Source of the DNA: Candidatus Cloacimonadota bacterium
GTDB taxonomy: Bacteria > Cloacimonadota > Cloacimonadia > Cloacimonadales > Cloacimonadaceae
Length of the DNA: 64,000 nucleotides
Direction: 5' to 3'
NCBI GenBank assembly: GCA_023228125.1
Contig: JALOBT010000006.1
Location: 7,005 to 71,004 of the forward strand
Shown here in pieces: positions 11,272 through 13,935 of this stretch. The position numbers were made by a program, and so were the translations under genes. Below the pieces are notes generated by a model, which was not told the origin of the DNA, searched no databases, and saw nothing but the letters and a program-made list of their open reading frames with translations. Every line of letters begins with the position of its first letter. Position 1 is the first letter of the stretch.

Positions 11272-11365
11272 GACGCGAACACATCTGATATAGATGCAGA
11301 AAAGCATAAGATCCAGGGGGGAGCGAGGTGAGAATACTAAGCTCCCCTATCTGCAAAGAGGCCGG

Positions 11366-13042
11366 ATGTGTAAAGCTCTGCTGTTTTTGGCTTTTCTGCT
11401 CTGCTGCGGCACTACTGCTCTTTTTGCCACGGATTGGACTGTATTAGTCTATATGGCCGCGGATAACGATCTTTCCTCTTTTGCTGTAGAGAACATTATA
11501 CAAATGGAGAGCGCAGTTCAAGCTGAGAATCTCAAGCTCGTGGTGCAGGTGGATTTGCCAGAACTGGGTGCAAAGCGGTACTTGATTCAAGAAAATCAAT
11601 CCCCTGGGATCGGATCGAGCGTCCTGCAAAATCTCGGAACGATAGACAGCGGTGATCCCATGCAGCTCCAAGACTTTATCCGCTGGGGCTTCGGCCGTTA
11701 TCCTTCACAACACAAAATGCTGATAATCTGGTCTCATGCGGATAGTTGGTACAAAAGTCCCAAGTACATAGCACCGGATCAGGACAGTGGTAATGTGATC
11801 GGGGTGGCCAATGGAGAGTTAGCCTCTGCACTGAGTGCTGGCCCCAAACTGGATATACTGCTCTTTGATGCCTGTAGCATGCAGAGCATAGAGATCGTGC
11901 ACACTTTGAGGCATTATGCCGATATCATCGTTGGCTCTGCAGATCAGGTTCCCGTGCAAGGTTTTCCCTATTCTGAGATCGTGCCTGTATTGGCGGGAAA
12001 TCCAGAACTCTTGGCTGCAAAATTGCCCAAGCTATATACGGATTCATATTTGCCCGGAAGCGCGAACAACCCTTCCAATTACTATTACACCACAACCTGC
12101 TCGGCAGTCAAGACGGATAAGGCCGATGACTTTTATCAAGCCTTCAAAGACTTTTCCAGAGCTCTGAGGCCGGTGGCCGGGGACTTGGCCGCCATCCGTG
12201 AAGAGCTCTTTGAGATGAATTCCGGGTATGCTGATGTGGACCTGACCCAGTTTTTGACCAGGATTCATGAGGCAGGGCTGACCGATAGTGTTCCCCTATT
12301 GGCCATGCTCGAAGAGATGATTTTGGCTTCTTCCTACACTATGCCTTGGCCGGAGACAGACCTTTCCAGTCTCGCGCTCTGGTACCCGGATATTCGCTAC
12401 AATCTGAATGCGGCCTGGAAAACCTATATGAAGATGGAATTTGGCAAAACGGGCTGGTTAAGCTTGGTCAATCTTGCTTTGGGAAAGGACATCATCCCAC
12501 CAGAAAGCCCTGTGTTGAGCAGGCAATATTCTCACTTTGGCAAGCTCTTTCTTCAGCTCAAAGCACCTGTGGACGTGGATTCTTTGTATTACCGCCTGGA
12601 GAGTGAAGCCTTAAGCTTTGATATCTTTCCTAAGGCCTATGCTGAGGACTTTGAACTTTCCTTTGATATTGCGGCAAATGGTAGCTACACAATATACGCG
12701 ATAGATCGAGCACAAAATATCTCACAAGCCTTAACCGGAGATTATAGCCATGATCCACTTAAGTACTCCCTGTTGATTTATCCCAATCCCATATCCGATC
12801 TAAGATTGGCCTTTCTGAAGTGGTATGGCGAAGAGAGTAAAGACGAATCAGTGAGCCTGAAGCTATACAATATCAAGGGGCAAAAGCTGATCCATTACCA
12901 CTTTGAGGTGCCCAGCCAAAATCCTGGAATGCTCAAGCTGGATCAGGTGCCAGGATTATCCGAACTTGCGCAGGGAATCTACCTGCTGGAGCTGAATAGT
13001 GGCGGTAAGAAAATGCACAAAAAGCTTACTATCTTATACTAA
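11366..13042 (+). CDS. clostripain-like cysteine peptidase (family C11) with a T9SS-type C-terminal sorting domain
   Basis: Signal peptide from the ATG at 11366 (MCKALLFLAFLLCCGTTALFA). C11 hallmarks are WTVLVYMAADNDL, the catalytic His region IIWSHADSW and the Cys region LLFDACSMQS. The C-terminal ~90 aa (LIYPNPISD..LKLYNIKGQ..GIYLLEL..KLTILY) match the T9SS type A pattern. The track ORF begins upstream at 11294. Confidence 0.75.
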   Translation: MCKALLFLAFLLCCGTTALFATDWTVLVYMAADNDLSSFAVENIIQMESAVQAENLKLVVQVDLPELGAKRYLIQENQSPGIGSSVLQNLGTIDSGDPMQLQDFIRWGFGRYPSQHKMLIIWSHADSWYKSPKYIAPDQDSGNVIGVANGELASALSAGPKLDILLFDACSMQSIEIVHTLRHYADIIVGSADQVPVQGFPYSEIVPVLAGNPELLAAKLPKLYTDSYLPGSANNPSNYYYTTTCSAVKTDKADDFYQAFKDFSRALRPVAGDLAAIREELFEMNSGYADVDLTQFLTRIHEAGLTDSVPLLAMLEEMILASSYTMPWPETDLSSLALWYPDIRYNLNAAWKTYMKMEFGKTGWLSLVNLALGKDIIPPESPVLSRQYSHFGKLFLQLKAPVDVDSLYYRLESEALSFDIFPKAYAEDFELSFDIAANGSYTIYAIDRAQNISQALTGDYSHDPLKYSLLIYPNPISDLRLAFLKWYGEESKDESVSLKLYNIKGQKLIHYHFEVPSQNPGMLKLDQVPGLSELAQGIYLLELNSGGKKMHKKLTILY

Positions 13043-13061: not shown

Positions 13062-13169
13062 TGTGGATAAGCTGTGGATAAGTTTTGTGAAAGAAAGGAA
13101 ACAGTAAGCTATGATATTGAAAAACAGAGAGATAGCTATAATGGCTTATCCACAAGAGCACGTGGATAA
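13062..13169. promoter_or_regulatory. cluster of four DnaA boxes
   Basis: TGTGGATAA occurs at 13062-13070 and 13073-13081 (a tandem CTGTGGATAAG 11-mer). TTATCCACA occurs at 13146-13154, and CGTGGATAA (8/9 match) at 13161-13169. The last two boxes form an inverted pair. An AT-rich 64-bp spacer separates the two pairs. Confidence 0.6.
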
Positions 13170-13203
13170 GTATGTAGTTAGCTGAAAATTAAGGAGCTAT
13201 AGG

Positions 13204-13935
13204 ATGTATCCAGAAACACAGATATCAAAACAGAAAATCACCGATCTGGCCAAGCTAAAACAAAAGAAATACCGGCAAGAGTTTAGGCTGGTGGTGGTGG
13301 AAGGCCAGCGGCTGATCCAGCAACTGCTTACCTACGATATAAAGCCTGCAGAGCTGTATTTTGTGGAGCGTCCGCTGATAGAAGTGGCCGGACTTGCCAG
13401 CTATGAATTAAGCCCATATCAGATGCAGCGAATCTGTGAGAGCGAACATCCCGCGGATCTGGCTGGACTTTTCCGCTTGCCCCAGGAGCGCAGGCAAGAA
13501 TACAAGAGAGCTCTGTATCTGGATAGGATCTCGGATCCGGGAAATCTGGGAACCATCTTCCGCACCGCTGCCGCTTTTGGGATAGATGGCATTCTGCTTT
13601 CCGAAGACTGCTGCGAAATCGCAAGTCCCAAGGTGATCCGCGCTTCTCTGGGGGCAGTATATAAGGTGCCTTTCCGCTATGTGAACCTTGAGGATTTGAG
13701 TGCTGAAAAAGCCAGACTAATAGCTTTTGATATGAGCGGAGCGATCAGCCTTGCTATGCACAAGCCTTCTCAGGAGGCAGAAATCTATATCCTGGGTAGC
13801 GAGGCGCATGGCATCGATCCAGTGCTGCTCAAAAAAGCTGATATTAGCTTGAGGATAGACATGAAAGAGGGGATGGAATCGCTCAATGTAGCGATTAGTG
13901 CGGCGATACTCTGCTATCAGTTAAGCTTGGGCTGA
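13204..13935 (+). CDS. TrmH/SpoU-family RNA 2'-O-methyltransferase
   Basis: 243 aa. SPOUT motifs are present: DPGNLGTIFRTAAAFG, ILGSEAHG and LNVAISAAILCY. Confidence 0.8.
   Translation: MYPETQISKQKITDLAKLKQKKYRQEFRLVVVEGQRLIQQLLTYDIKPAELYFVERPLIEVAGLASYELSPYQMQRICESEHPADLAGLFRLPQERRQEYKRALYLDRISDPGNLGTIFRTAAAFGIDGILLSEDCCEIASPKVIRASLGAVYKVPFRYVNLEDLSAEKARLIAFDMSGAISLAMHKPSQEAEIYILGSEAHGIDPVLLKKADISLRIDMKEGMESLNVAISAAILCYQLSLG

Follow-up and report, generated by a model that had tools for sequence, protein, structure and literature searches.

What does a dense cluster of DnaA boxes do between a protease gene and an RNA methyltransferase gene, on a contig other than the one that carries dnaA? 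The question is raised by positions 13062-13169 of a 64-kb window (the whole stretch of DNA analysed) from a Cloacimonadota metagenome-assembled genome (MAG), here called G000, which comprises 2.60 Mb in 84 contigs at 48% GC and whose close relatives carry titles as Candidatus Cloacimonadota MAGs. The interval there between a gene for a C11 protease and an RlmB/TrmH-like gene, referred to below as trmH, holds three perfect DnaA boxes and a fourth that is near-perfect. Alignments of related genomes indicate that the cluster is conserved functional DNA with a rigid architecture. It is probably a secondary, non-origin locus of DnaA assembly and control, of the class that includes datA and the DnaA-reactivating sequences (DARS) of Escherichia coli and the DnaA-box clusters (DBCs) of Bacillus subtilis and Streptomyces.

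Conservation and architecture of the cluster

The family of the window, Cloacimonadaceae, comprises 98 genomes in 11 genera, of which 10 genera were sampled. In all 10 of these the cluster and trmH are adjacent: the boxes are found directly upstream of the trmH orthologue in 21 of the genomes examined in the window's genus and in each of the 18 genomes sampled from nine other genera. Across the genomes that keep the cluster, TrmH protein identity drops to 39-54%. A family search with the 6-bp gap that separates boxes 3 and 4 in G000 had suggested a genus-specific element, an impression that was overturned by the trmH loci of the other genera. In the other families of the order, boxes upstream of the trmH orthologue were not found.

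Major-allele frequencies in both the genus and the family alignments are 0.97-0.99 for boxes 1, 2 and 4. Box 3 reaches 0.92 within the genus and 0.71 family-wide, and box 5 reaches 0.72 and 0.60; the spacer has values of 0.55-0.59, and the gap between boxes 3 and 4 has values of 0.38-0.47. The distances between boxes are also held, with 11 bp from box 1 to box 2 and 86-89 bp from box 2 to box 4 in 40 of 40 sequences. From start to start, boxes 3 and 4 are separated by 15 bp in the window's genus, except for its member G013, which like six other genera has 14 bp, and by 12 bp in genus g2. The gap between the two is 5 rather than 6 bp in genera g18, g20, g22, g23, g24 and g25 and in G013 (g1), and is 3 bp in g2. 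A box 5 with at most two mismatches is present in 12 of 21 genus sequences and 8 of 19 family sequences, always at +12. With a local density of at least four boxes (each with at most one mismatch), an intergenic position and retention in relatives, the cluster has the sequence properties of a B. subtilis-type DBC.

Variant forms of the locus also occur. In G013 (L014, 1233-1495), one species of the window's genus, the trmH start is separated from the cluster by about 240 bp of extra non-coding DNA. In genus g21 (L101, from G066, 2267-2394; also L109 and L112), up to six perfect boxes occur in the same direction, without an opposed box.

The spacer between the two groups of boxes contains one motif that is fixed in position. 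The core of the integration host factor (IHF) consensus, CARNNNNTTR, has a perfect match at a single aligned position in 17 of 39 sequences, whereas no other offset gives more than one perfect match among the 39; the T at 13133 is invariant across the family. Two groups of boxes split by an IHF-like site at constrained spacing are, by sequence only, what characterises a datA-type locus. One HU-family protein is encoded in G000, with best matches to IHF beta and IHF alpha at 91 and 83 bits, as against curated cut-offs of 115 and 111.

A first-pass annotation of the window had described three perfect boxes and one near-perfect box, arranged as a tandem 11-bp pair, a 64-bp AT-rich spacer and an inverted pair across 6 bp, and every detail of that description holds. 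Box 5 and the IHF-core-like motif at 13122-13134 are additional to it (Table 1). Boxes 1 and 2 are two tandem copies of CTGTGGATAAG, 11 bp from start to start, and box 5 begins 12 bp after the start of box 4. The AT content of the spacer is 67% vs 52% in the genome. Clustering beyond chance, which had also been claimed, is borne out: the perfect boxes of the cluster are the only perfect boxes within the window, there are 64 perfect boxes in the 2.60 Mb of the genome, and the chance of at least three of these falling within 108 bp anywhere in the genome is about 2e-4. The position was likewise given correctly, between the protease and the TrmH-family gene, with a start 35 nt from box 4 and with flanks that do not diverge. 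Both flanking genes are on the + strand, and the methyltransferase gene has a ribosome-binding site (AAGGAG) at 13191-13196 and an ATG at 13204. The top NCBIfam match of the methyltransferase is RlmB, under that model's cut-off.

Table 1. Parts of the DnaA-box cluster and its flanking genes, in coordinates of the window
Feature	Position	Strand	Description
DnaA box 1	13062..13070	-	Perfect; + strand reads TGTGGATAA; major-allele frequency 0.98 in genus and family alignments
DnaA box 2	13073..13081	-	Perfect; + strand reads TGTGGATAA; head-to-tail with box 1; conservation 0.97-0.99
Possible weak box 2b	13086..13094	-	TGTGAAAGA (3 mismatches); TGTGGAAnn in many relatives; partly conserved, suggested by alignments
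Spacer	13082..13145	.	64 bp, fixed length, 67% AT; sequence free except for one motif
IHF-consensus-like motif	13122..13134	+	AAACAGAGAGATA; 7/9 specified positions of WATCARNNNNTTR
DnaA box 3	13146..13154	+	Perfect, TTATCCACA; opposed to box 4; candidate equivalent of DARS box I
DnaA box 4	13161..13169	-	CGTGGATAA, 1 mismatch; TGTGGATAA in most relatives; candidate equivalent of DARS box II
Degenerate box 5	13173..13181	-	TGTAGTTAG, 3 mismatches; TGTAGATAA in many relatives; candidate equivalent of DARS box III
Upstream flank: gene for a C11 protease (clostripain family)	11294..13042	+	Pfam PF03415; type IX secretion system (T9SS) sorting domain PF18962
Downstream flank: SpoU/TrmH-family (RlmB-like) RNA 2'-O-methyltransferase gene	13204..13935	+	Pfam PF00588, PF22435

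The convergent pair in other families

Of 203 genomes of the order, 104 carry the convergent pair with a 5-bp gap, each in a single copy, and a reversed-pattern control gave no matches. In the window's family, this single convergent pair is the trmH cluster. In families f4, f5, f6 (one genome), f9, f10, f11, f12 and f13, it lies within the gene for a lamin-tail-domain (LTD, PF00932) protein (L237-L250, for example G137:C118:28409-28431). The order-wide pairs had on first impression been taken for further intergenic loci, before they were found inside this gene. There the pair is always in phase 0 and encodes the peptide N-L-S-T-x-x-V-D-N/K.

A purely protein-level explanation of the pair in the LTD gene is rejected by a codon test, based on 73 LTD sites from a codon-degenerate search. 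The leucine is written as TTA at 63 of the 73 sites (genome-wide usage 0.05-0.28), the serine as TCC at 68 (about 0.20), the valine as GTG at 71 (0.19-0.45) and the aspartate as GAT at 72 (0.72-0.80). The flanking asparagine, which lies outside the box, is free (AAC 37, AAT 36). The convergent pair is under DNA-level selection within the LTD coding sequence.

At several LTD loci, one member of the pair is accompanied by further same-direction boxes at a distance of 10-11 bp. In f11, five of six loci (L242, L243, L244, L247 and L248) add a tandem box pair, 11 bp apart, at +312/+323, still in the LTD gene. The LTD locus is origin-proximal: its distance from dnaA is 106 kb in G034 and 61 kb in G039, and the orthologue in G043 is 88 kb away. 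The LTD orthologue of the window's family (G000 C50:64776-66300) has lost the boxes as well as the peptide motif (NLSLY-KPM, NLSFL-VPI). A BLASTP comparison of LTD open reading frames with the upstream C11 protease found no similarity (E below 1e-3), and the intergenic cluster is thus not an obvious remnant of an LTD gene.

A third location is seen in G129 (family f2, L246 1466-1500), where a single convergent pair with a 5-bp gap lies immediately upstream of the dnaA start codon, in the position of a dnaA promoter or leader. Families f2, f3, f7 and f8 have neither the trmH site nor the LTD site. The occurrence of one pair per genome, at one of two loci, points to a role that does not depend on a promoter and is required once per chromosome. 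In G035, of the same order, there are seventeen identical weak matches to the Bac_DnaA domain, each about 247 aa long, which suggest a highly amplified IS21-type (IstB-like) element.

Origin, operator or titration sink

Dense perfect boxes and a moderately AT-rich (67%) spacer might mark a chromosomal origin, or a second or backup origin, and origins are not always located beside dnaA. In this family, however, it is the dnaA-linked site that bears every hallmark of an origin. In G000, dnaA is located on contig C20 (685-2019, minus strand) with boxes on both sides, ten of them (with at most one mismatch) flanking the gene on the first 2.2 kb of the contig. Downstream of dnaA, the order is an AT-rich block, TAGTAATAGTAGTAG, the spacer GCTT, TGTGGATAT, TGTAGATAA and several more boxes, and 14 family genomes carry this module almost unchanged. 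In the basal unwinding system, DnaA-trios are located at most 16 bp away from a TGTGGATAA-oriented box, on its 5' side (PMC8287927); at least three trios within that distance, in the correct orientation, were taken as the sign of an origin (PMC8287927). When all 1136 boxes of G000 with at most one mismatch were scanned, a run of five consecutive trio triplets was unique to the dnaA site (C20:402/410), and the boxes of the trmH cluster had runs of only 0-1 triplets. The AT-rich block at dnaA is invariant and 75-83% AT; at the cluster there is no conserved AT-rich unwinding element beside trios, and the sequence of its spacer is unconserved. Boxes on both flanks of dnaA occur order-wide. The probable oriC of G000 is C20:340-610, where the five trio triplets (TAGTAATAGTAGTAG) are 4 bp from a box and six boxes (with at most one mismatch) occur at 402-601. 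In this genome, dnaN is not adjacent to dnaA and is found on contig C32.

The distribution of boxes and the GC skew also speak against an origin at the cluster. G000 has two dense box clusters only, the dnaA-flanking one and the trmH cluster. Other groupings, at C23:5000-5204 and C8:740-935, were dismissed as chance; they lie inside long open reading frames and consist mostly of one-mismatch boxes. The draft-contig skew of G000 is uninformative (absolute values of 0.01-0.03 that track local gene orientation) and was replaced by the full curve of a closed relative in the same family, G043 (2,246,820 bp). The cumulative skew minimum of this relative is at 2,228,310, 18.5 kb from dnaA at position ~1, and the maximum is on the opposite side, at 1.10-1.14 Mb. 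Its trmH cluster, the sole dense cluster besides two that flank dnaA, is located at 447,171-447,277, which is 20% of the circle and about 0.4 of the right replichore, and is 447 kb away from dnaA. In G110, cluster and dnaA are on one contig, 919 kb apart. The cluster is not oriC, which lies beside dnaA on another contig. Given also that the flanking genes are not divergent and that the element is limited to one family, a primary or backup origin at this site is highly improbable. The first-pass annotation had held that a datA- or DARS-like site was at least as likely as oriC, and had proposed a skew analysis, a scan for other box clusters and a conservation check. All three support it: the skew of the closed relative puts the origin at dnaA, away from the cluster; the scan finds a dnaA-linked cluster with DnaA-trios and an AT-rich element on another contig; and the boxes at the trmH locus are kept across the family. 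With oriC rejected, the DARS-core geometry described below sharpens the claim, and the position of oriC is fixed for Cloacimonadaceae.

The alternative of a DnaA-regulated promoter, which the same annotation had offered alongside a datA- or DARS-like site, has fared less well than its companion. It may be that the cluster is only an operator for the trmH/rlmB-like gene, at which boxes 3-5 block transcription or boxes 1-2 activate it. Such an operator would couple ribosome maturation to replication status, much as DnaA in B. subtilis represses yydA and ywlC, where DnaA-box clusters repress adjacent RNA-modification genes (PMC2533591). That precedent is in favour of an operator, as are the strict adjacency to trmH in 10 genera and the mere 35 nt between box 4 and the start codon. 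A weak sigma-70-like match is present in G000 as well (GTGAAA-17-TATGAT, 13087-13115, 9/12), and one RNA contig in a relative begins inside the spacer. The sigma-70-like match is, however, unconserved, and neither conserved sigma-70 hexamers nor a terminator were found in a scan of G000 or in the genus and family alignments, so that no conserved promoter can be identified by the boxes. At the G043 locus, RNA contigs in seven of eight metatranscriptomes are unbroken from the protease gene through the cluster to trmH, at similar depth. Run X27 has a coverage gap, with the contig start in the spacer just mentioned, 14-17 nt before box 3; a transcription start at this point was considered and was not reproduced in the seven other runs. 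The cluster thus seems to be part of a read-through transcript. For the sequence of the window itself, RNA data gave one 177-nt contig inside trmH, without a 5' end. At a separate site in the middle of trmH in G043 (L099 1918-1940), RNA contigs end within about 20 nt of one another in five independent metatranscriptomes, which may reflect strain heterogeneity. To these data can be added that G013 keeps its boxes despite the DNA inserted before trmH, that the fixed 86-89-bp architecture is not needed by a simple operator, and that the convergent pair of the sister families, under DNA-level selection inside a coding region, cannot be a promoter there. A role as a trmH operator only is thus unlikely.

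A pure titration sink, or a DnaA anchor that structures the nucleoid, would have no specific architecture, and its likeness to DARS would be incidental. In keeping with such a role, the boxes of the cluster are perfect and of high affinity, whereas boxes I and III of the E. coli DARS are imperfect; genus g21 has only same-direction boxes; and outside Proteobacteria only titrating clusters have been shown (PMC5742627). It would nevertheless leave unexplained an opposed pair whose gap is fixed at 5 (or 6) bp, a distance from box 2 to box 4 that is fixed to within 3 bp in all 40 sequences, and a position-specific motif in the spacer. Four or five boxes are also a small sink compared with the 64 perfect and about 1100 near-perfect sites of the genome. 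Titration or anchoring alone is quite unlikely to account for the cluster, and a secondary locus at which DnaA is assembled and controlled is the preferred reading.

Proposed action and comparison with known loci

At such a control locus, DnaA would bind the four or five boxes cooperatively, with a head-to-tail pair of protomers on boxes 1-2, a head-to-head pair on the convergent boxes 3/4 and one more protomer on the weak box 5. Binding of the boxes by DnaA is predicted from their sequence; they are identical to boxes at the organism's own oriC. An IHF-like protein at the conserved motif is predicted to bend the fixed-length spacer, by which the two DnaA groups would be brought into contact. 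The complex might then change the pool of active, initiation-competent DnaA that is available to oriC, about 20% of the chromosome away, and hence have an effect on initiation. The change could be brought about either by nucleotide release and reactivation, as at DARS, or by hydrolysis or titration, as at datA and the DBCs. At DARS, the bound nucleotide is released by two DnaA molecules that face each other head-to-head on convergent boxes with 5 bp between them. Within the class of secondary loci, DARS-type reactivation is possible, with the smaller share of the probability, and the rest falls to inactivation or titration of the datA or DBC type. The fixed convergent geometry slightly favours the DARS type.

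Several observations weigh against a DARS-like control locus, or against parts of it. The convergent 3/4 pair is missing in genera g17 and g21, where same-direction boxes stand in place of box 3; because of these variants without an opposed box, the head-to-head pair must be considered dispensable in some lineages. Box 5 is a poor match in G000, and about half of its relatives lack it; the gap between the candidate boxes I and II is 6 bp in the window's genus rather than the 5 bp of DARS (most other genera in the family have 5 bp). The spacer motif matches the IHF consensus at just seven of nine positions in G000, and the IHF-like protein falls under the curated cut-offs. In DnaA itself, Leu290, Phe239 and Lys243 are conserved, and Gln208 of the E. 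coli protein, a residue of the head-to-head interface that is needed for DARS action, is Asn in this organism. An Hda homologue was not found in G000, and a cycle of ADP-DnaA like that of the regulatory inactivation of DnaA (RIDA) is thus not evident. Finally, given the conserved adjacency to trmH, the cluster may have a role in regulating or throttling that gene.

Descriptions of DARS are confined to E. coli and nearby beta- and gammaproteobacteria (PMC5742627), and a literature search found neither DARS-like elements nor DnaA-box clusters reported for Cloacimonadota. The timing of replication initiation beyond E. coli and B. subtilis is largely unknown, and DARS-type reactivation has been shown in E. 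coli only. A rigid, conserved, single-copy candidate DnaA module with DARS core geometry, in a phylum without a cultured member, is of interest in this context. Tentatively, it may be that control of DnaA by DARS-type sites extends beyond Proteobacteria. Cloacimonadales would then have one evolutionarily mobile module per genome, written in the codons of an origin-proximal LTD gene (N-L-S-T-x-x-V-D-N) in most families and replaced in the window's family by an intergenic version upstream of trmH, to which a tandem pair and an IHF-type bend site have been added. The convergent pair is found at two alternative loci, one of them coding and under measurable DNA-level selection, and the latter is a clean case of cis-regulatory constraint that shapes protein sequence. 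The boxes match the E. coli consensus, and E. coli DnaA could be used on the fragment in vitro.

The comparison with DARS is one of sequence layout, in a host of a different phylum, Cloacimonadota. DARS are defined by boxes I and II that are opposed and boxes II and III that are in the same direction (PMC6868365). Read directly from E. coli K-12, DARS1 is TTATCCACt-N5-TGTGGATAA-N3-TGTGtATtA and DARS2 is TTATtCACc-N5-TGTGGATAg-N3-TGTGaAgAA. Boxes 3-5 of the cluster read TTATCCACA-N6-(c/T)GTGGATAA-N3-TGTAG(t/A)TA(g/A), with N5 in most other genera, and the layout across the family is TTATCCACA-N6 (N5 in most genera)-TGTGGATAA-N3-TGTAGATAA. The arrangement of DARS recurs here: a short gap parts the opposed boxes I and II, and box III has the direction of box II and starts 12 bp after its start (PMC6868365). 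The polarity, TTATCCACA and then TGTGGATAA, is common to the cluster and DARS; the cluster is also non-coding and lies far from oriC, by about 0.4 of a replichore in the closed genome of G043. As a control, the pattern TTATCCAC-N7-GTGGATAA, with at most one mismatch, which matches the cluster-type element once per genome, occurs once in the E. coli K-12 chromosome, at DARS1. There are also differences. The boxes of the cluster are consensus-perfect, unlike DARS boxes I and III of E. coli (box III carries two mismatches), and box III is weak or absent in about half of the relatives. The cluster has an extra tandem pair at a fixed distance, and its IHF-like motif is on the box-I side, whereas the IHF and Fis sites of DARS2 are on the box-III side.

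In its tandem pair and its IHF-type site between two groups of boxes, the cluster is, as far as sequence can indicate, closer to datA than to DARS. Like datA, it has few high-affinity boxes in two groups, parted by an IHF-type site with constrained spacing, and it has a convergent pair, which in datA is formed by boxes 3 and 4 (TTATTCACA-N3-TGTGGATGA). It also adjoins a transcription unit and is read through by it, as datA is; in E. coli, read-through transcription modulates the binding of IHF at datA (PMC10950094). However, datA extends over about 1 kb and has about 160 bp from its box 2 to its box 3, the order of box orientations differs, and the host of the cluster has an IHF-like protein that falls short of curated IHF thresholds.

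The closest parallels outside Proteobacteria may be the DBCs of B. subtilis, especially the one at yydA-yycS, and D78 of Streptomyces, which are conserved intergenic clusters of 4-8 boxes outside oriC. The gene yydA encodes the SPOUT rRNA methyltransferase RlmH, a parallel to the SpoU-family gene beside the Cloacimonadota cluster. DBCs often lie beside genes for translation or RNA modification, which they repress while also titrating DnaA (PMC2533591; PMC5742627). They are oriC-proximal, however, and lack a fixed DARS-type trio of boxes or an IHF-type site, whereas the Cloacimonadota cluster is located 20% of the chromosome away from oriC and is rigid in architecture. Non-origin clusters of DnaA boxes are already known in the form of datA, DARS, the DBCs and D78 (PMC5742627); what appears to be new here is the DARS-core layout in Cloacimonadota.

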